Source of the DNA: Planctomycetaceae bacterium
GTDB taxonomy: Bacteria; Planctomycetota; Planctomycetia; Planctomycetales; Planctomycetaceae
NCBI GenBank assembly: GCA_037445755.1
Contig: JBBIJW010000023.1
Span: 22,351-86,350 of the forward strand
Direction of reading: 5' to 3'
Length of the DNA stretch: 64,000 nucleotides
Under the pieces are notes generated by a model, which had not been told where the DNA came from, did not search any database, and saw only the letters and a program-made list of their open reading frames with translations. The position numbers and the translations under genes are program-made. Below are positions 13,310 through 31,091 of this stretch, in pieces (positions within the stretch are counted from its first letter, which is position 1; every line of letters begins with the position of its first letter).

Positions 13310-14071
13310 GTGGTAACCCCTCTGCCGACGCCATCCTCGCCCCATACCGACGTCTTCGCCATTGCGGCGGAGTTGGGGTTGATTCCCTCCGAGCAGGTGG
13401 AACGACTGCGGGAGGAGTGTGCGGCCACCGGTCAGGCTCCGGCTCAGTTCCTGGCTGATCGCGGCCTGCTGAGCGCCGTGGAGCTGGACATTGTGGAAAC
13501 GCAGGCCTCCACCACGGACGTCATCCCCGGCTATCGCATCCTGGGTTTGATTGGCAAGGGAGGGATGGGGGTCGTCTACCGGGCGGAGCAGCGGACCCTC
13601 GGCCGCGTGGTAGCCCTCAAGACCATTCTCGTCAGCCGCATGGCGGATCGGAGCATGCTCGATCGGTTTGCACTGGAAGCCCGCACGGTGGGACAGCTCC
13701 GGCATCCGAACATCATTGCCGCCCATGACTTCGGCCGGCACGGAGGACGGCTGTACCTGGCCATGGAACTCGTCGAGGGGACTGATCTCGACCACCAGCT
13801 CAAAGCTCAGGGGCCCCTCGACGAGTGGCTGGTGTGGGGATTGGCCCGGCAAGCGGCGGCGGGACTCGCCCATGCCGCACAGCACCGCGTCGTCCATCGC
13901 GACGTCAAACCCGCCAATCTGATGTTGGTGGAGCCTCCCGAAGGCTATCCCCTCCCTCCCGGCCTGCCGATGGTCAAAATCGCCGATTTCGGTTTGGCGC
14001 TGTTGCAGGCGGAACTGGGGGAGCGGACGCGGTTGACGGCCACCGACACCACCTTGGGAAGTCCACACTAA
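13310..14071 (+). CDS. Ser/Thr protein kinase, N-terminal fragment (ends at an in-frame TAA inside the catalytic domain)
   Basis: GTG start. Kinase subdomains GKGGMGVVY, VVALK, HRDVKPANLM and KIADFGLA are present. The fragment ends ...TLGSPH then TAA at 14069-14071. Confidence 0.75.
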   Translation: MVTPLPTPSSPHTDVFAIAAELGLIPSEQVERLREECAATGQAPAQFLADRGLLSAVELDIVETQASTTDVIPGYRILGLIGKGGMGVVYRAEQRTLGRVVALKTILVSRMADRSMLDRFALEARTVGQLRHPNIIAAHDFGRHGGRLYLAMELVEGTDLDHQLKAQGPLDEWLVWGLARQAAAGLAHAAQHRVVHRDVKPANLMLVEPPEGYPLPPGLPMVKIADFGLALLQAELGERTRLTATDTTLGSPH

Positions 14072-15283
14072 ATGGCCCCGGAACAGCTTGAAAGCAGCGA
14101 CGTCGACTTCCGGGCCGACATGTATGCCCTCGGAGCAACGGTCTTTCACGCGCTGGCGGGGCGTCCTCCCTTTGCCGAACTGAAACTCTCGCAGCTCATT
14201 GCTGCAAAACTGGGAGAGGGCCGCCCCCGACCCATCAGCGAATACCGGGAGCATCTGGAACCGGCCACCTGCGCGCTGGTCTCCCGGTTGATGGCTCGGC
14301 AACCAGAGGAGCGTCCCGGTTCCTATCCGGAATTGTTGAGCGAAATCGACGCCGTCCTCCATTCACTGCGGACCACGACGCTGCCGGTGCCGGCCGGGAT
14401 TCCCCCTCTCTCTCCGAGTCCCCCTCCCGGCGGGAGCGCCACCGACCAGTTCCCCGGCGGGGTGACGGCGCCTCAACCGGCCGGGGCTGCCGGAGCACCT
14501 CCGCGGCCACACGCGCGGCGCTGGATCATGTCCGGGATCGCGGTCGGGAGTGCCGTCCTGCTCCTCATCGCCGCCATCGCCTGGCGACCTCAGCGGCGGA
14601 ATCGTCCTGAAGCCGTCGTACCGCAGCGGGTGGCAGCCGCTTCCACCCGGACCGTCCTTTCGCTGCTGAATGGGGTCGACACCCGGGGGTGGCTCATCGG
14701 GCACGGAAACTGGGTGTATCGGCCGGAGGAAGCGGCCTTGGTGGGGACGGACGGCATCATCACGCGCCCCATCCCCTTGGAAGTCGCGGAATTGGAAGGC
14801 GCCGCCCCGGCGCAACCGTATCGCTGGTATCGACTCGAATTGATCTTGTTGCCTCTGGCTGCAAGTCCCGCGGAGGGGGAACGGCCTGAGGACAGCCTGG
14901 ACAGGCAGGGGGGGGAGCGTGCCGCGCACCATCGGTCGCAGGAACTGCACTTTGGCATGGAGAGCATTGACGGGACGGAGGATGCGCCCCGGTACGTGCT
15001 GAGACGATCGGAGAGCGAGCTGTCGCTCGGCACGCGCGAATCGCACCAAGCGCCGTTTGTCCTCCATGCCGGTGCTGATGCCCGCCCCACGGACCCCGCG
15101 CAGGCAATGGCCGTCACGCTGGAACGTCTGCCGAGCGGCTGGTTTGTGGACGTGAACGGAACGGCATTCGCGGCAGTTCCGCTTCGTCCGCAGGAGCGGC
15201 CGGCGTTCAGCCTCCGCGCGGAGGGGGATGTCCGCTTTGCCGAGATGGCCCTGCATCCGCTCCGGCCCCGAGACCCGGAGTGA
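14072..15283 (+). CDS. Ser/Thr protein kinase, C-terminal fragment (rest of catalytic domain, TM helix, DUF1080-like ectodomain)
   Basis: Begins MAPEQ immediately after the TAA, in the same frame. Contains DMYALGATVFH, the TM segment IAVGSAVLLLIAAIAW, and a LLNGVDTRGW ... VDVNGTAFAAVPL jelly-roll pattern. Confidence 0.7.
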   Translation: MAPEQLESSDVDFRADMYALGATVFHALAGRPPFAELKLSQLIAAKLGEGRPRPISEYREHLEPATCALVSRLMARQPEERPGSYPELLSEIDAVLHSLRTTTLPVPAGIPPLSPSPPPGGSATDQFPGGVTAPQPAGAAGAPPRPHARRWIMSGIAVGSAVLLLIAAIAWRPQRRNRPEAVVPQRVAAASTRTVLSLLNGVDTRGWLIGHGNWVYRPEEAALVGTDGIITRPIPLEVAELEGAAPAQPYRWYRLELILLPLAASPAEGERPEDSLDRQGGERAAHHRSQELHFGMESIDGTEDAPRYVLRRSESELSLGTRESHQAPFVLHAGADARPTDPAQAMAVTLERLPSGWFVDVNGTAFAAVPLRPQERPAFSLRAEGDVRFAEMALHPLRPRDPE

Positions 15284-23946: not shown

Positions 23947-26013
23947 TCAGGCGCCGGGGAGGGGGATCGGCTGTTGCAGCAGCGGAACCGTGTTCTCGGC
24001 CGATGGAGAGGCGACGGACGCGGCAGCCTCGGGACCGGCCGACATCGCATCCGTCGGCGAGACGGTGGCTGTCGAGCGTCGCCCGCTCCGTTCAAAGCCC
24101 TTGGGCTTCCGGTCAGGTACGGCAGTCAAGGCAGCGTTGGCGTCCGGCGCCGTCTGAGCCGTGGTCCGGCGCGGCGCGGGCTTGCCGGCTTCCGCGTTGA
24201 CCCAGTCGCGCATCGCCGCCGCCAGTTCGAGCTTTCCCGCCGGCAGTTCCTTGCCGATCAGATGCAGGTCCTCCACCTGCAACCGGCCGCGCTCATTCAC
24301 CAGCCGGACCATCATGCCCCGCTCGGGCGTTCCCAGCGTGACCAGCACATCGTGGCCGAGTTCTTCGATCCGCGGCATGGTTCCCGGCAGAAAGCGGTCC
24401 ATGTCGACGGCGATCTCCGGAACCCGATCAGTACGCGACCAGATGATGCGCCGCAGGCCTTCGGAAGAATTGCGGGCGAGCAGCTCCACATTCCGTTGCT
24501 TCCACGCCCAGGCAAAATTGTGCACGGGGACCAGTACGCTGAACGTCGTCTTCAGCGAGCCGGAGCGATTATTCGCGGGGAACCGGACGTCATCGACTTG
24601 CGGACGTCCGCTGGTGGAGTGCAGCACGTAGGTCAGGGCGCGGGTCCCCTGGGTCACTGTGATTTCCGTCACCGGACCCTGGAAGATGGTCGTCACGATG
24701 CGTGGGGGAGCGCCGGGGATGCCGTCCCAGGGAAAGCCTTCGATCACCTCCGGGGACGCGAGGCGCTCCCATACCCGTTCATTCAAGTCGCGCGTCGAGA
24801 GTTGCGACAGCAGGGACACGTCCCGGGCCGCGAGGGCCTCGGCATAGACCTCCACTACCGCCTGAGCCGTGAACAGCACGGAGAGCGGCTTGATCTGCGC
24901 GCCGCCCCGCTCATAGATGGTCAGTTCCTCCACGCGGCAGGGAGAGGCCGGAGCCGGGGACGACCGCAGGCGCGGCTCCTGCTCCCGCTCGCGGGTCATG
25001 GTGACGAGATACGTGTCCTCCCCGACATCGAACAGCAGATCGATGCGGTGGTCGTGCTCCTCGAGTTCAAACCGCGTCGCCAGCAGGCGGGGGATCGGCA
25101 AGGGAACCGTGTCAAAGTCCGCGGCCTGGAGCGCCTGCTCATAAAACGTGGGCGAGGCCACCTGCCGCAGCGCCTCACGGTCCCGCGCTTCATAGGCGCG
25201 CAGGAACTCCGTCGCCTGTCGCACGCACCGCGCCACGTGCGCGGCCGACTCCGGAGGCCGACCACGCGTCGAATGCAGGACCGCATCCTGAATCACCCAC
25301 CGGGGGGCAGGGTCCGACAGCCGCACCAGTTCCAGCACCAATTGTCCCGACTGCCGCGGAAGCTGCACCGTCGCCCGGTTGGTCTGAATGCGCGCCTCCG
25401 GGCGGAACGTCTCCAGCTTGATCCCCGACAGAAACCGGTCCGTCACCTGGGCCAGGTGCACCGGAGAAAGCTCCTCCAGCGGCGACCGCAGGTCCGGATG
25501 CAGCCGCGCCAACGTCTCCTCGCGGCTCCCTTCGCTCCAGAATTTGAGAAACTCCTGCACGGTGATCAGCAAGTCCATCTGCTCCGTCACCGACTTGGTG
25601 AGCGGCGGTTGATCGCCCGGGCGGGCTTGGGTGAGGATCACGTCGTCCACGACCCATTTGCGGCCTCGCCGTTCGCCGTCCGGCGCTTCGCGCTTCAGCC
25701 GATACTGCACGGTGCGGGGTGGTTCGCCCACTTCCACCGTCACCAGCCGCTCGTCTGGACCGAGTTCCTGGATCTCCTTGACCGTCCCTTCCTCACGGGG
25801 GAGGGGGAGCACCGCCAGCGAATCCAGCGCCTCTGCCACGCGCAGCGCCCGCTGCTGAAAGTCCGCCGACGTGGAGGCCTGCAAGTCTTCGAGCTTCCCC
25901 GCCGCCAGCCCCGCTGTGAACGACTCAATCGCCCGTGCCGTGAAGAAGGAGGTGCAACCGCTCAGCCACAGGGCCAAAAGGCAGAAACTGCCGATGGAGG
26001 CGACGCGGGACAT
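23947..26013 (-). CDS. lipoprotein with about five repeated NTF2-like modules, unknown function
   Basis: Lipobox LLALWLSGC. Recurring module starts and ends are described in the findings. Confidence 0.7.
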   Translation of the reverse strand: MSRVASIGSFCLLALWLSGCTSFFTARAIESFTAGLAAGKLEDLQASTSADFQQRALRVAEALDSLAVLPLPREEGTVKEIQELGPDERLVTVEVGEPPRTVQYRLKREAPDGERRGRKWVVDDVILTQARPGDQPPLTKSVTEQMDLLITVQEFLKFWSEGSREETLARLHPDLRSPLEELSPVHLAQVTDRFLSGIKLETFRPEARIQTNRATVQLPRQSGQLVLELVRLSDPAPRWVIQDAVLHSTRGRPPESAAHVARCVRQATEFLRAYEARDREALRQVASPTFYEQALQAADFDTVPLPIPRLLATRFELEEHDHRIDLLFDVGEDTYLVTMTREREQEPRLRSSPAPASPCRVEELTIYERGGAQIKPLSVLFTAQAVVEVYAEALAARDVSLLSQLSTRDLNERVWERLASPEVIEGFPWDGIPGAPPRIVTTIFQGPVTEITVTQGTRALTYVLHSTSGRPQVDDVRFPANNRSGSLKTTFSVLVPVHNFAWAWKQRNVELLARNSSEGLRRIIWSRTDRVPEIAVDMDRFLPGTMPRIEELGHDVLVTLGTPERGMMVRLVNERGRLQVEDLHLIGKELPAGKLELAAAMRDWVNAEAGKPAPRRTTAQTAPDANAALTAVPDRKPKGFERSGRRSTATVSPTDAMSAGPEAAASVASPSAENTVPLLQQPIPLPGA

Positions 26014-26280
26014 CAGCTTGTCCTCGAACAGATGAGGGGAACCAGCGGCCAGACCCCCAGACGTTCGCGGCAGCCAGATCGGAGGGCTGATCGCGCGAAC
26101 GAGTCTGCGGGAACCGCGATTTGTTCGGATCGGAGGGGCGAAGGAAAGACCGTCTCAAGGAGACAGGAGAGGCGGCCGGGTTCTCTCACAAGCTCCGCGG
26201 ACGGTCAAGACGCCCTGCCCGGTCCGCCGACGGCAACGGCGGATTCGCACACCTCACCAGCGATTTCTGCGGGAACCGTG

Positions 26281-26310
26281 TTGACGTTCCCGGCAACACA
26301 GACGTATATC
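26281..26310 (+). promoter_or_regulatory. candidate sigma70-type promoter for the fliO/P operon
   Basis: TTGACG (26281-26286), an 18-nt spacer, then TATATC (26305-26310), about 100 nt upstream of ATG 26408. It overlaps the inverted repeats GGGAAC..GTTCCC and GTGTTG..CAACAC. Confidence 0.3.
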
Positions 26311-26407
26311 ACGCCCCCCTGCGCCACGGAGCCGCCTCCTGCCTGCCTGGCGGCTCTCCCACTGGTGGCTCCCCCGCCCCTCCCTCGATCCCCTCCCCCG
26401 GCGCCGC

Positions 26408-28159
26408 ATGAACCTTGATTCACCCAGTCTGACCGCCGCCCCGTGGAGGGATCGATCGCGCGGTCCCGCCTGGCGACGGCGGGGCCTCATTCCTCCCGTG
26501 CTGGCGTCGCTGGGGCTCTTGTGGTGCTCCGTCGCACTCGTCGCCGCCGAACCTCACACCCCCGTTGCGCACGCCGGCCCGGCCGTTCAACAGTCCCGGG
26601 TGGATCAGCCGTTCCTGTTCGGCTCGCTCGAGAAAAAAACGCCCATCGACCGCAACCCGGGCGACCCGCTCAAACCGCGCACGGCCGCTCCCGGAACCTC
26701 GCTGGGTGGAACCCTGGTCATTCTGGGAGGGGTGGTGCTGCTCATCCTGGCGGGAGGCTGGGCGGTTGGCCGCCGCACTCCGCAACGGCACGGCGGGCTC
26801 TCTGCCGCCGTGCAATGCTGGGGGACTCAACCCCTGACACCGCAACTGGCCATCCATCTGGTGCAGGTAGGGGAACGACTGCTGGTCCTCGGTTCGGGGT
26901 CGGACGGACTTCGCACTCTCGCGGAGATCACCGACCCAGGCGAGGCGGCCCATCTGCTGCACCTCTGCCGGGCGGAGTCCCCCCCCTGCCCCACCTTCGG
27001 AAACGTGTGGGATTGGCTGTGGGGACGCCGCCGCGGCGATGAAACCGCAAGCTCAGCGGCACACTCGAACCGAGTGCCGCGTTCGTCTGCACGCGGATCG
27101 GCGTCGTCGCGGGAGCAGTCGCACGCCTCGGCAGCGACGGCTCCTCGACCAGCCGCCTCCCGGACCCTTCACACGGCCGGAATCGTGCTGGCACTCGTCC
27201 TGTCGGGTTCTTCCCTGGTCGCACAGGAGCCAGGGCGAGGCGTGATCGGACTTGGGGCGACGCCTTTCTCCCCCCTCGAAGAGAACCCGCGCTCGGTTCC
27301 CTTGCCCGTAGCCGGGGCGGTTGCGCCTCGTCCCGCAGGGACGCCATGGGAAGCAGATGCTCTCGAACGTTCACCCCACGCCGCCAGTTCCCCGCTCCCT
27401 CCGCACGCCGGACACCCCCTCCCCGCAGCCACCCCGGAAACGCCGGCGACGTCGCGTGCAGCGGAAGTTTCGGCGTGGCTTCCGCCGGGCGGATGGGGGG
27501 GGATGCTGCAATGGGGGCTGCTCATCGGCGTGGTCAGTCTCGCCCCCGCCATTCTGCTGATGACGACCTGCTACGTCCGGATCATTGTGGTGCTGGGCCT
27601 GCTGCGGCAGGGGTTGGGCGTGTCGCAATTTCCGCCGACCCAGGTGCTGACGGCGCTGGCGCTGTTTCTGACGGCTCTGGTCATGTGGCCGGTGTGGAGC
27701 CAAGCCTACTCTGAAGGCATCGCCCCTTATGCGCGGGCGGCGACGGCGGATGAAGCTGCACTCCCAGCCGCGCTCACTGCCACGTTGCAGCCGGTCCGCG
27801 GCTTCATGAGCCGGCAGATCGAAGCGACCGGCAACACGGCCGCACTCGATTTGTTTCTGGAGTATCAATCAGGTACTGCGACGGCAGCCCCCGCCTACTA
27901 CGAAGACGTCCCGATCCAGGTGCTGTTGCCGGCCTATGTCCTGAGCGAGCTGAGGACTGCCTTCCTGATCGGGTTTCAGATTTATCTGCCGTTTTTGGTG
28001 ATCGACCTGGTGACATCCAGCGTTCTGGCGGCTGTCGGTCTGCAACTCCTCTCTCCGGGGGTTGTGGCGCTCCCCTTCAAATTGCTGTTGTTCGTCCTGG
28101 TGGATGGTTGGCATCTGACGGTGGAACTGTTGTTGCGGAGCATTGCTCCCGCCGTTTGA
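26408..28159 (+). CDS. fliP: flagellar export-gate protein FliP with N-terminal FliO-like region (fusion)
   Basis: The C-terminal approx 240 aa is FliP (LLMTTCYVRIIVVLGLLRQGLG ... FQIYLPFLVIDLVTSSVL ... LPFKLLLFVLVDGW). The N-terminal part has a TM helix plus a FliO-like AIHLVQVGERLLVLGSGSDGLRTLAEI. There is no in-frame stop between the two parts. Confidence 0.8.
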   Translation: MNLDSPSLTAAPWRDRSRGPAWRRRGLIPPVLASLGLLWCSVALVAAEPHTPVAHAGPAVQQSRVDQPFLFGSLEKKTPIDRNPGDPLKPRTAAPGTSLGGTLVILGGVVLLILAGGWAVGRRTPQRHGGLSAAVQCWGTQPLTPQLAIHLVQVGERLLVLGSGSDGLRTLAEITDPGEAAHLLHLCRAESPPCPTFGNVWDWLWGRRRGDETASSAAHSNRVPRSSARGSASSREQSHASAATAPRPAASRTLHTAGIVLALVLSGSSLVAQEPGRGVIGLGATPFSPLEENPRSVPLPVAGAVAPRPAGTPWEADALERSPHAASSPLPPHAGHPLPAATPETPATSRAAEVSAWLPPGGWGGMLQWGLLIGVVSLAPAILLMTTCYVRIIVVLGLLRQGLGVSQFPPTQVLTALALFLTALVMWPVWSQAYSEGIAPYARAATADEAALPAALTATLQPVRGFMSRQIEATGNTAALDLFLEYQSGTATAAPAYYEDVPIQVLLPAYVLSELRTAFLIGFQIYLPFLVIDLVTSSVLAAVGLQLLSPGVVALPFKLLLFVLVDGWHLTVELLLRSIAPAV

Positions 28160-28212
28160 AGCGGTGCTCACCCCCCCGTTCGGTCGCGTCCACGACTTCC
28201 CTAACGTTGACC

Positions 28213-28479
28213 ATGACTGCCGATTACGCCGTTGATCTCGTGCGTCATGCGGTCCTCACAGCAGTGCTGGTGGCCGCGCCGGTGTTGGCGGCAGTGTTCG
28301 CCGCCAGCGTGCTGATCGCATTAGTGCAGACCATGACCAACCTTCACGATCCAACCGTATCGTTGACGCCACGGTTGTTCGTGGGGGGGCTGTGCGTCGT
28401 CTGTCTGCTCGCCTGGATGTTGGAACGGCTGACGGACTTCACCACGGAACTCTATCGCGGATCAACCTGGGGGCTTTAG
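28213..28479 (+). CDS. fliQ: flagellar export-gate protein FliQ
   Basis: ATG 28213. An 88-aa two-TM protein, MTADYAVDLVRHAVLTAVLVAAPVLAAVFAASVLIALVQTMT, matching the FliQ/SctS pattern. Confidence 0.85.
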   Translation: MTADYAVDLVRHAVLTAVLVAAPVLAAVFAASVLIALVQTMTNLHDPTVSLTPRLFVGGLCVVCLLAWMLERLTDFTTELYRGSTWGL

Positions 28480-28563
28480 AGCGGATGACAACACGGACGA
28501 GCCGCCGACGTCGTTGCGGCGACGGCGCGCCCGTCCGGGGAGCTGACAGCCCGGCTCACCCTG

Positions 28564-29427
28564 GTGATGCCGGCTGATGCTCGCAGCGGCGAGGTCTGTA
28601 TGTTCATGGCCGATTCAGTTCTCCCCCACCCTCTGCTGCTCCTGACGGCCGACGCCCTGTGGCCGGTCTGGCTGATGACGATCCGTTGCTACGGGCTCTT
28701 GACGGTCGCGCCGATCCTCGGTGGCGCGGTGGTGCCTCATCGGCTCCGATTGGGACTGGCGGTCGTGCTGGGAGTGGCGGCCGGAATGACGGCCTCTCCT
28801 CCTGCCCAACCCACGCCGCTCCTCTGGCCCGAGCCGCTATGGCTGTCCCTGGGAGAGTTCGCCCTGGGCGCCGCGCTGGGGCTGGGGGTCATGATCGTGC
28901 TGGCGGGACTCAACGTGGCGGCCAGTCTGCTGGAACATCAGTGGGGCCTCCCCAGCACAGGCAACTCTTTCGGTGCAGAGACGGCCCCCCGCCCCCCCCT
29001 GGTTCATGTGTTGGGAGGCCTCGGCCTGGTGCTGTTTGTGACCTCCGCTCCCGTGGGAGGAGACCTGATGCTGGTTCGGTCCTGGCTCGATTCGCTGCGG
29101 ATGCTCCCCCCGGGCAGGGTGCAGGACATCGCCTCACCCGTGCAGGTTCTGCAGGACTGCGTCGCGGTATCGCTGCTGTTGGGACTCCAGGTGGCTGCAC
29201 CGGTCGTTGTCATGCTCGGGATCGCCCAGAGCACCTGGGCGATGCTGGCCAGGAACCGGGGCGGAGGGGTCTGGCAGGTCTCCCTCTCACCAATCCGGTT
29301 CCTCTTGGGAGTGGTGGTGCTGGCCGCGACGCTGACGGGGCTGAGTGAGCGGATCGCCGCTGCGCTCCAGAGCGTGTCAGCCAGCGGCCTGGGAGTGGGA
29401 ACGCCCGGGGAGGGACTGCCGCCATGA
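28564..29427 (+). CDS. fliR: flagellar export-gate protein FliR
   Basis: Polytopic membrane protein (MTIRCYGLLTVAPILG ...) placed between fliQ and flhB. The start is uncertain (GTG 28564, ATG 28567, 28600 or 28606). Confidence 0.8.
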   Translation: MMPADARSGEVCMFMADSVLPHPLLLLTADALWPVWLMTIRCYGLLTVAPILGGAVVPHRLRLGLAVVLGVAAGMTASPPAQPTPLLWPEPLWLSLGEFALGAALGLGVMIVLAGLNVAASLLEHQWGLPSTGNSFGAETAPRPPLVHVLGGLGLVLFVTSAPVGGDLMLVRSWLDSLRMLPPGRVQDIASPVQVLQDCVAVSLLLGLQVAAPVVVMLGIAQSTWAMLARNRGGGVWQVSLSPIRFLLGVVVLAATLTGLSERIAAALQSVSASGLGVGTPGEGLPP

Positions 29428-30194
29428 CCGAATTGGCTGACGAACGGACCCTTCCCCCCACGCCGAAACGCCGGGCCGAGGTCCTCGCCCGCGGCGACGT
29501 GCCGCACAGCAGCCTGCTGACATCGGCCGCCCTGCTGCTGACAGTGCTCACCTGGCTCGCCGTCTGCAGCCCCACGGGGACGGAGGAGGTGGGACGGTGG
29601 TGGCGCGACCAGTGGCAGGAGCCGCTCTCCCTCACCGGCGACGACGCGCCGGTCGAGCGACTCTCGGAAGCGCTCTGGACGTTGCTGAGCTGGACGGGCG
29701 GTCTGGGACTCCTGGGGATCGCAACGGTTCTGGGGGTGGAGTGGCTGCAACAGGGTCTTCGCATTCAGACGGCTCGCCTCTGTCCCGATGCCGCTCGACT
29801 GACCTCCGGAACCACGCGCGTGCTGGCAGGTCTGAATCCCCTGCTGTGGCTCTCCGAAGGGCTGCGCTGGACGGCGCCGACCATCGCCATGCTCGCCCTC
29901 CTGTGGACCCGCCGCGGGCGATGGACCGCACTGACGCACGCCGATCCCGTCACCTTGTTGACCGAGGGGGGGGCCTTGGGACTCGAAGTGCTCACGCGGC
30001 TGACCGCCACGATTCTGCTCCTCGCCCTTGGGCATTACGCCTGGCGACGGTGGCAGTGGGAACGGGCGTTGCGCATGACGGTTCAGGAGTACCGCGCCGA
30101 GCAAGAGCGGAACCTTGACCCGCGGAGGTGGGCAGTATCGGCCGACCGGCCGCCCGAATCGTCGTCGGAAACGCCCTCCCTCCCCGCGCAGTGA
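29424..30194 (+). CDS. flhB: FlhB, transmembrane N-domain only (C-terminal NPTH autocleavage domain absent)
   Basis: ATGA overlap with fliR. N-terminus ERTLPPTPKRRAEVLARGDVPHS, four TM helices, then MTVQEYRAEQERNLDP and a stop about 30 codons later. Confidence 0.75.
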   Translation: MTELADERTLPPTPKRRAEVLARGDVPHSSLLTSAALLLTVLTWLAVCSPTGTEEVGRWWRDQWQEPLSLTGDDAPVERLSEALWTLLSWTGGLGLLGIATVLGVEWLQQGLRIQTARLCPDAARLTSGTTRVLAGLNPLLWLSEGLRWTAPTIAMLALLWTRRGRWTALTHADPVTLLTEGGALGLEVLTRLTATILLLALGHYAWRRWQWERALRMTVQEYRAEQERNLDPRRWAVSADRPPESSSETPSLPAQ

Positions 30195-30218
30195 CGTGGT
30201 TCCTGCCTGCTGGACGCA

Positions 30219-31091
30219 TCATCGCGGCAGGCCGATCGGCGAGTCGCGCTCCGCCGAGAGCGGGGCACGGGGAGGGTCTGGCGGCCCTGCGGCAGGGGCG
30301 CCATGAGACGTCTCCGCCGTCCCCGCGGACTCCAGGGCTTGAGGTGCTCCGAGGTCGGTGACCGTCGGGCTGTCGGCCGTTTCTGTTGCCGCACCCTCCG
30401 TGGGAGCGGAGATCAATGACCGCCGTGAAGCCTCCCGCGGTCGCTGGTCAAACCAACCGGCCTCCTGAAACACCGCGTAAGTGAGCGTCGCCATCAGGGT
30501 GTAACTGAAGACGTTGGGCATCAGGGCGTCTCCCGACCATTTGAGGGCCGTTCCGGACGACCTCTTCAGCCGCAGACGGTGGTCCTTCACCTGCACGCTG
30601 TACAGCTCGTCCAGCAGCAGGTGGGAGAGAAACCCGACTGCCACCCCTCCTGCCATCAACAGCTTGACGGACGCCCGGGGACTGGGATAGGCAAGGTAGA
30701 CGGCCTCGGCGGCGATGATGAGGGCGGGAAGGCTGTGAAACATCCCGCGGTGCACCGACAAACGGCTGACGAGCGCGGCCCCCCCATACTTGATCGCCAC
30801 GTACAGGGCGATGATCACGAGCATGATCGTTTCGGGATCGGCCGGAAGACCCAGCAGAGCCGCCACGCGGTTGACGAGTAACAGCGGCGCCACGGCCCCC
30901 AGCAGACCGAACATTTCACGGACCGGACGCCCGTTGTCCGAATCGAGATCGGGGAGCATCCCGGCCACACCGGTGAAGCAGGCCGCCAGCACGCCCTGCA
31001 GCGGATGGAACTGAAAGGCCGTCACCGCACCCAGCCCATATCCCAGCCCGAGCAGGCTGCTGACGGTGATGTGTTCGCGATAGTTGGCCAT
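30219..31091 (-). CDS. membrane-bound metal-dependent hydrolase, YdjM/DUF457-like, with a disordered C-terminal tail
   Basis: MANYREHITVSSLLGLGY ... MLPDLDSDNG ... FHSLP pattern with multiple TM helices. Confidence 0.65.
   Translation of the reverse strand: MANYREHITVSSLLGLGYGLGAVTAFQFHPLQGVLAACFTGVAGMLPDLDSDNGRPVREMFGLLGAVAPLLLVNRVAALLGLPADPETIMLVIIALYVAIKYGGAALVSRLSVHRGMFHSLPALIIAAEAVYLAYPSPRASVKLLMAGGVAVGFLSHLLLDELYSVQVKDHRLRLKRSSGTALKWSGDALMPNVFSYTLMATLTYAVFQEAGWFDQRPREASRRSLISAPTEGAATETADSPTVTDLGAPQALESAGTAETSHGAPAAGPPDPPRAPLSAERDSPIGLPR

Follow-up and report, generated by a model that had tools for sequence, protein, structure and literature searches.

A short FlhB without the autocleaving C-terminal domain in a probably reduced flagellar export apparatus of the Pirellulaceae

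Introduction

The window analysed here is the whole 64,000-nucleotide stretch of contig C23 (JBBIJW010000023.1) of a Planctomycetaceae bacterium, and it carries an operon of flagellar export-gate genes that ends in an flhB of 256 codons. To our knowledge, the two-domain switch FlhB/SctU is regarded as essential to every type III secretion system (T3SS), and an flhB reduced to its membrane half raises the question of whether the gene is broken, whether the missing domain is supplied from elsewhere in the genome, or whether the gate works without a switch. An earlier note on this DNA, made from the letters alone, had named these same options, and the comparative data favour the last of them. We consider it probable that the gene encodes a natural C-domain-less FlhB within a reduced native export apparatus of the Pirellulaceae, in which the C-domain became dispensable once ruler and early substrates had disappeared and the membrane part persisted as a structural gate subunit. 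The short form was shown to recur in many genera and to go along with the loss of the native ruler, FliK, and of every native rod and hook gene. The literature searched yielded no account of an FlhB without its C-domain or of this planctomycete relic. The features of the locus are as follows, with lengths in amino acids (aa) and base pairs (bp) and with ORF standing for open reading frame.

29424..30194, + strand: short flhB, encoding the FlhB membrane domain only, without the autocleaving C-terminal domain; 256 aa
29439..30104, + strand: FlhB_TM region (residues 6-227), which takes in the conserved N-terminal segment, four helices and the FlhB_L loop and reaches into the first part of the linker (LRMT...E..R.E)
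30105..30191, + strand: C-terminal tail (residues 228-256, 29 residues), poorly conserved and probably disordered
30195..30218, no strand: 24-bp spacer between flhB and the YdjM-family gene, whose stop codons face each other across it; too small for a C-domain
30219..31091, - strand: convergent gene for a YdjM-family membrane protein (Pfam YdjM, E 3.9e-11), the operon boundary and outside the system
26408..28159, + strand: fused fliO-fliP, which opens the reduced gate operon; the longest ORF gives 583 aa, from an uncertain start
28213..28479, + strand: fliQ, 88 aa (Pfam Bac_export_3, E 1.6e-16); the longest ORF begins at 28108, and orthologues are called at 88 aa
28564..29427, + strand: fliR, 287 aa as the longest ORF (Pfam Bac_export_1, E 1.6e-23)

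Results

Domain content and structure of the short FlhB

The ORF limits and the missing C-domain reported by the earlier note were confirmed. The gene occupies 29424-30194 on the + strand, its ATG overlapping the fliR stop codon as ATGA and its TGA stop lying at 30192-30194, and the Pfam family Bac_export_2 (PF01312) matches residues 6-227 with profile positions 1-219 of 335 (E 1e-25). Profile positions 220-335, the C-terminal third, have no match in the protein, no NPTH motif is present, and the stop falls 29 residues past the Pfam-matched region. When compared to the canonical FlhB, SctU, YscU and SpaS proteins, the likeness covers the first ~230 residues, comprising the N-terminal segment, two helical hairpins, the FlhB_L loop (Q-x-G...G..R) and the start of the LRMT linker, and the gene likewise stands after fliR. 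The canonical protein differs in having an FlhB_C of about 120 aa with NPTH autocleavage, the FliK-responsive switch and the early-substrate pocket, all of which are missing from the short FlhB. Of the features that define FlhB/SctU, therefore, the N-terminal segment with its four-helix domain, the loop and the linkage to fliP, fliQ and fliR were found, and the C-domain with NPTH was not. An identity as an injectisome (SctU-type) protein does not fit, FliO being present and the tree described below grouping the gene with native flagellar FlhBs; no search was made for secretin or needle genes.

A search of the PDB with the single short-FlhB sequence gave no match, and a profile was needed. The profile built from short FlhBs aligned to residues 5-240 of the solved FlhB chains 8z5s and 6s3l (E 2e-40), that is, to the membrane domain and loop only, and more weakly to SpaS (E 3.6e-12). 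The AlphaFold model (predicted local distance difference test, pLDDT, 81.7) shows two long hairpins, lower confidence in the loop between helices 2 and 3, and an unstructured tail with a pLDDT of ~56-58, and by hydropathy the third helix is weaker and the other three are strong. The model superposes on chain K of 6s3l, the FlhB within the FliPQR-FlhB assembly, at TM-scores of 0.54 (query) and 0.69 (target); Foldseek E-values are uninformative for such an all-helical model, and 6s3l_K was the only PDB match with a meaningful TM-score. No variation was seen across 37 short and full-length relatives at G24, S29, Q109, G111, R132, M218, E222 and E226, and almost none at G129; of these positions, Q109, G111 and R132 belong to the loop, and M218, E222 and E226 to the linker. 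Among 9 short forms, Q109, G111 and R125 are invariant.

Conservation of the truncated gene

The earlier note had pointed to the length of flhB in related genomes, and the short form does recur there. Three metagenome orthologues in the protein database, with 86, 73 and 70% identity, are each exactly 256 aa; their contigs come from Joint Genome Institute (JGI) and Logan assemblies of other samples and have the same synteny, including the convergent YdjM gene, which in the orthologous contig L048 stands 20 bp after the flhB stop. A same-genus genome (G001) encodes a short FlhB of 237 aa with 36-38% identity. Against the orthologues, the ratio of nonsynonymous to synonymous substitution rates (dN/dS) of the short flhB is 0.40 overall, 0.34 for residues 1-227 and 0.38-0.82 for the tail, and those of its operon partners are 0.26 for fliO-P (against the L048 orthologue), 0.35 for fliQ and 0.42 for fliR. 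By these comparisons, the gene is neither a frameshift product nor an assembly error, and the short form was shown to be conserved and, as judged by dN/dS, under purifying selection.

The region behind the stop codon was searched for traces of the lost domain. A profile made from 73 FlhB-C sequences of this bacterial family gave negative scores, with filters off, in all three + frames of 30050-30800. An alternative frame at 30128-30361, which the earlier note had considered as a possible frameshifted and decaying remnant, is open for 77 codons because the 3' tail of the minus-strand YdjM gene underlies it, and no FlhB-C similarity was detected in it with Pfam or the FlhB-C profile. The YdjM-family gene has 86% identity to its L048 orthologue, with a dN/dS of 0.14 overall and 0.34 in the tail, so that the tail is conserved on the minus strand. 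The possible remnant was rejected on these grounds, as the orthologues also keep 256 codons. The convergent neighbour itself, noted previously as lying close to the flhB stop, was found where expected, across a 24-bp gap.

A second flagellar system and scattered native-type genes

The genome (G000; assembly of 5.03 Mb, 96% complete) contains a second and complete flagellar cluster on contig C5, which the earlier note had missed. This cluster has a 354-aa full-length FlhB with an intact NPTH, together with fliG, fliI, fliQ, fliR, motA, motB, fliL, fliM, fliN, fliP, flhA, a sigma factor, flgF, flgG, flgA, FliK and hook genes. Over the whole genome, the FlhB-C profile matched only this full-length FlhB (E 3e-47), the next match having an E-value of 4.4. 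All five Flg_bbr_C matches and the sole FliK match of the genome are on C5, so that the set in the window has no rod, hook or ruler of its own. In a six-frame search, FliP, FliQ, FliR, FlhB, FlhA and the sigma factor were present twice, and FliI, FliG, FliM, FliN, FliL, MotA and FlhF once. For flagellar motility this genome presumably relies on the C5 cluster; no other set in it has rod, hook, FliK, FliI and Mot genes.

No flhA occurs in the window, in agreement with the earlier observation that flhA is not adjacent to the operon; two flhA genes were located on other contigs, C4 and C5. The separation is no anomaly: flhF and a sigma28-type gene come after the second flhA, on C4, and a separate flhA-flhF-sigma28 locus of this type is normal for the family, as all genomes examined have it, be their FlhB full-length, short or of both kinds. 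The window operon is of the native family type in a derived, reduced state, and its other relic parts would be the flhA-flhF-sigma28 locus on C4, a divergent native-type FliF-FliG_C fusion on C19, and FlgM, which is also present in this genome. Between this genome and G001, the identity of the relic proteins is 62% for FlhA, 57% for FlhF, 94% for sigma28, 49% for FliO/P, 49% for FliQ, 41% for FliR and 36% for the short FlhB, while that of the C5-type FlhA and FliP is 66% and 70%.

Two of these relic genes deserve a separate description. The FliF-FliG fusion, at C19:34518-36596 (L094:8518-10596, - strand), is very divergent, and its neighbours are a sigma54 activator gene and a 729-aa gene that is FlgI (P-ring)-like with HEAT repeats. 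Natural fusions of this kind (a YscJ_FliF N-terminal part joined to FliG_M and FliG_C) occur in reduced systems at L090:11235-13085 and L091:10078-11793 as well. The sigma28 gene beside flhA-flhF, at C4:138105-138881 (L008:14105-14881), is 94% identical in the two genomes, against 36-70% for the other flagellar proteins, and the C4-type sigma28 scores 450-490 bits across the family, non-flagellated members included, which suggests a role beyond flagellar genes.

Distribution of short and full-length FlhB among relatives

In a survey of 121 Pirellulaceae/Pirellulales genomes, FlhB matches fell into two classes, full-length (profile positions 1-335) and N-only (positions ~2-220 to 2-240, in frames of 236-290 aa). 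In most named Pirellulaceae the same operon ends in a full-length FlhB of ~360 aa, as in Pirellula staleyi, Aporhodopirellula rubra and Rhodopirellula maiorica. The order fliO/P-fliQ-fliR-flhB with a short flhB was seen in at least 20 genomes. Co-occurrence was tabulated in 34 chosen genomes, as follows.

Full-length and short FlhB (n = 10): FlhA 2; FliK 10/10; rod/hook (Flg_bbr_C) 5 each; Flagellin_N 2 each
Short FlhB only (n = 14): FlhA 1; FliK 0/14; rod/hook 0/14; flagellin 0/13 (one 79%-complete exception); FlgM 11/14
Full-length FlhB only (n = 10): FlhA 1; FliK 9/10; rod/hook (Flg_bbr_C) 4-5 each; Flagellin_N 2-3 each

FliK thus accompanies full-length FlhB in 19 of 20 genomes. The genomes with a short FlhB only keep the operon, with a FliF-FliG fusion, fliH, fliI, fliN, fliOPQR and short flhB, and most of them retain the gate, FlhA, sigma28 and FlgM. 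Genomes whose sole FlhB is short gave no FlhB C-domain match either. The C5-type cluster (fliLMN-fliP-flhA-sigma) is restricted to genomes with both forms of FlhB. Other genomes show intermediate states: in G092, G004 and G111 the rod genes are absent and FlhB is full-length with NPTH gone; G017 has a TPTH variant of the cleavage motif; and G056, with ten rod/hook matches, has two complete systems and two full-length FlhBs. As a side observation, the native full-length FlhBs of G051, G013 and G064 read NPTE and not NPTH in apparently complete flagellar systems.

In a tree of the FlhB N-domain, the C5-type proteins fall together with FlhBs from other families of the class (support 100/99). The short FlhBs of the two-system genomes make up one clade (99/91), and the remaining short forms are scattered among native full-length FlhBs. 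From this scatter it follows that the C-domain was lost at least two times, six by parsimony. Beyond the family, the short FlhB query found 541 relatives in a library of 1.84 billion cluster representatives. Among the best 150 of these, taken as 50% identity clusters, 88 are 224-290 aa long, none 300-329 aa and 62 at least 330 aa; the short ones include none with NPTH, end at a median of 41 residues past the LRMT motif, and have tails that vary in length and sequence. A phylum-wide sample contained the short FlhB as the sole copy in two further planctomycete families.

Two other FlhB ORFs were also noticed. The FlhB ORF of G119 (L036, G119:C100) has 274 aa and ends a few residues past the N-P of the former cleavage site, and that of L137, from a metagenome-assembled genome of Aureliella helgolandensis, is of equal length; it spans FlhB positions 4-271, and its end probably falls close to that site. 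By their end points, both would be 'pre-cleaved' forms consisting of FlhB_TM and CN.

Discussion

Alternative explanations of the truncation and of the gate

The shortness of the gene could be explained by damage or by a split. A recent pseudogene or assembly artefact, in which a frameshift or nonsense change cut a normal flhB and left ORF 30128-30361 as its decaying C-domain, has in its favour the 77 open codons and a loose visual likeness to the NPTH region. We regard it as extremely improbable, given that JGI and Logan orthologues at 70-86% share both the 256-codon ORF and the convergent neighbour, that the same-genus orthologue at 36-38% identity is likewise short, and that the downstream frames are negative against the FlhB-C profile and Pfam in a region that encodes a conserved minus-strand tail. 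A split FlhB, with the C-domain provided in trans by a YlqH-like FlhB-CC gene or by a fusion protein, draws on real cases in other planctomycetes: stand-alone FlhB-CC genes exist in G056, G018, G022 and many genomes of the phylum-wide sample, and two relatives encode an FlhB-C-like protein of ~855 aa. The trans supply suggested in the earlier note is nevertheless very unlikely here, because no stand-alone FlhB-C was found in the 96%-complete genome by Pfam at E<=1, by phmmer with the relatives' proteins or by the family FlhB-C profile, the N-terminal extension of the long FlhA ORF is non-coding-like and not FlhB-C, and short-only genomes give no C-domain match. That extension had been considered after C-domain matches turned up inside the ~855-aa frames of the two relatives, whose proteins are not FlhA; a fusion of FlhB-C to the C4 FlhA, which has an 855-aa open frame, was rejected, as the extension is rich in Arg, Pro and Gly and the likely start is MPKAG. 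The relatives' proteins, with their embedded FlhB-C-like domain, are encoded at L041:3220-5781 (- strand) and L042:3748-6315 (- strand) in genomes G053 and G127 and have no homologue in this genome; the L042 protein has an N-terminal zinc-ribbon-like motif, a transmembrane helix, a coiled coil and NPNS, and that of L041 keeps NPTH in a frame that runs off the contig end.

Other explanations accept the short gene as real and differ on what the gate does. The operon could be a non-functional relic in slow decay, open yet idle, and we judge this rather unlikely; its supporting observations are the elevated dN/dS, the broken flhA of a relative and the lost fliH, fliI and fliN that are described in the next paragraph. 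It is opposed by all four ORFs, which are unbroken in at least 20 genomes and throughout a clade whose terminal branches carry ~1 substitution per site, by dN/dS values well below 1 with the invariant FlhB loop and linker residues retained, and by the relic FlhA (62%) and sigma28 (94%), whose identities between G000 and G001 are similar to or above those of the active system's proteins. Alternatively, the short-FlhB gate and the second FlhA could under certain conditions enter the C5-type basal body, sharing FliF, FliG, FliI and the rod, and give the same flagellum a different export behaviour. Gate components are indeed the only duplicates in this genome, and the single-copy flhF adjoins the relic flhA; but the short-FlhB gate is kept in 14 genomes without rod, hook or FliK, and so needs no flagellum, the genome keeps its own native-type FliF-FliG fusion, and rod and hook subunits would have no place to dock if FlhB-C is missing (PMC8983047). 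An alternative gate for the C5 flagellum is accordingly an improbable explanation.

Some observations weigh against a naturally reduced and still useful native apparatus. The gate genes of the window have dN/dS values of 0.26-0.42 versus 0.08-0.14 for their neighbours, i.e., they evolve faster, though still well below neutrality. In the two-system genome G105 ('Planctomycetaceae bacterium BC1.73'), several TGA stops interrupt the native-type flhA (C3:333734-335198) with the fliO/P-Q-R-short flhB operon intact, and some lineages may be losing the relic. The genome studied here has no native fliH, fliI or fliN, and the relic would therefore need the proton-motive force alone or parts borrowed from the other system. 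FlhF and sigma28 might be retained since the second flagellum needs them. Moreover, either of the two flagellar systems may be ancestral. Finally, export of FlgM as the function of the gate is a speculative reading of gene content.

A possible route to the reduced gate

A natural C-domain-less FlhB in a reduced native apparatus would be explained by the following course of events. Rod/hook-type substrates and FliK would have been lost first, whereupon FlhB-C, as their docking site and the receiver of the FliK signal, would have become dispensable; its decay would have started with the loss of NPTH and continued with truncation, several times independently. Early subunits are known to dock at FlhB_C (PMC8983047), which is a flexibly tethered separate domain, invisible in the map of the complex (PMC7064499; PDB 6S3L), and FlhB_TM wraps FliPQR, with the FlhB loop essential for secretion and gating (PMC7064499). 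FlhB_TM would accordingly have been kept as an integral subunit of the FliPQR-FlhB gate, its loop gating the pore. More speculatively, the surviving gate may still export cargo by the FlhA-dependent late-substrate route, the most obvious candidate being FlgM, an anti-sigma factor that was kept and by which the highly conserved sigma28 would be controlled.

A wider version of this reading is possible, and we put it forward tentatively, as doubtful in its full extent. A rod-less and hook-less descendant of the flagellar T3SS, composed of the FliF-FliG ring, FliOPQR, FlhB_TM, FlhA, FlhF, sigma28 and FlgM, with or without FliHIN, might act as a stand-alone export or signalling device at the cytoplasmic membrane, working in a constitutive 'late-substrate' mode with no switch. 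Such a device might be kept in non-flagellated Pirellulaceae and in at least two other planctomycete families, for instance for a periplasmic export of FlgM that tunes a repurposed sigma28 regulon.

Comparison with known systems

In Salmonella, C-terminal truncations and autocleavage mutants of FlhB alter substrate switching, which locates the switch in FlhB_C and makes it genetically separable. Those are partial truncations and point mutants in a complete flagellum, whereas here the whole domain is naturally absent along with the ruler and the early substrates. Chlamydiae, which belong to the same superphylum (Planctomycetes, Verrucomicrobia and Chlamydiae, PVC), have orphan homologues of FlhA, FliI and FliF, and Buchnera makes flagellin-less basal bodies with the rod and hook kept. 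Both resemble the present case in retaining a subset of flagellar export or basal-body genes in non-motile bacteria; we know of no conserved C-domain-less FlhB in either. The YlqH-type 'FlhB-CC' proteins are also a natural dissection of FlhB at the domain boundary, but they are the converse piece, a C-domain without the membrane part, and in many planctomycetes they occur beside a full-length FlhB.

The best precedent for a functional export apparatus without a flagellum is Lysobacter enzymogenes OH11, a non-flagellated strain; the flagellar T3SS genes left in it are expressed, serve protein secretion and influence twitching (PMC7688988, PMC7277350). Likewise, it keeps flhA, flhB, fliP, fliQ, fliR and fliI in non-flagellar roles. 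Lysobacter differs in having rod, hook, ring and hook-cap genes and mainly lacking flagellin (PMC7688988), with no FlhB truncation reported in these papers, whereas the planctomycete relic has no rod or hook, no FliK, a FliF-FliG fusion and an FlhB that has lost its C-domain. Most partial T3SS loci are of flagellar origin, as noted by Abby and Rocha (PMC3459982).

Other features of the window

The first ORF of the operon, 26408-28159, joins FliO (Pfam match at residues 120-182) and FliP (residues 372-574, E 1.8e-64) through a long low-complexity linker. The same fusion is present in the orthologues L046, L048, L040 and L025; it is common to the closest orthologues (L046, L048, G001, G105), and in more distant relatives fliO and fliP are separate or overlapping. 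For fliR, the start is likely the ATG at 28600, which would give 275 aa, as its orthologues have 273-275 aa. The operon is flanked by housekeeping genes, e.g., those encoding MutS, a GH32 enzyme and a sulfatase, and a promoter and terminator scan of 25900-30400 found nothing exceeding chance. Elsewhere in the window, a TAA at 14069-14071 divides a Ser/Thr protein kinase gene (13310-15283, + strand) into two ORFs of the same frame, taking the place of the Tyr in the conserved GSPH-Y-MAPE motif; the split is either a nonsense pseudogene or a sequencing error.

Implications

In a whole family of gates the switch domain has gone, along with FliK and every early substrate, yet the membrane domain of FlhB was kept. 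The pattern supports regarding FlhB_TM as a structural gating subunit by itself, with substrate ordering as the sole task of FlhB_C. With regard to annotation, short flhB genes of this kind should not be called pseudogenes, and gate genes alone are no proof of a flagellated genome. The finding points to a conserved flagellum-less export apparatus in planctomycetes and makes the capability of a minimal, switch-less flagellar T3SS gate a testable question.

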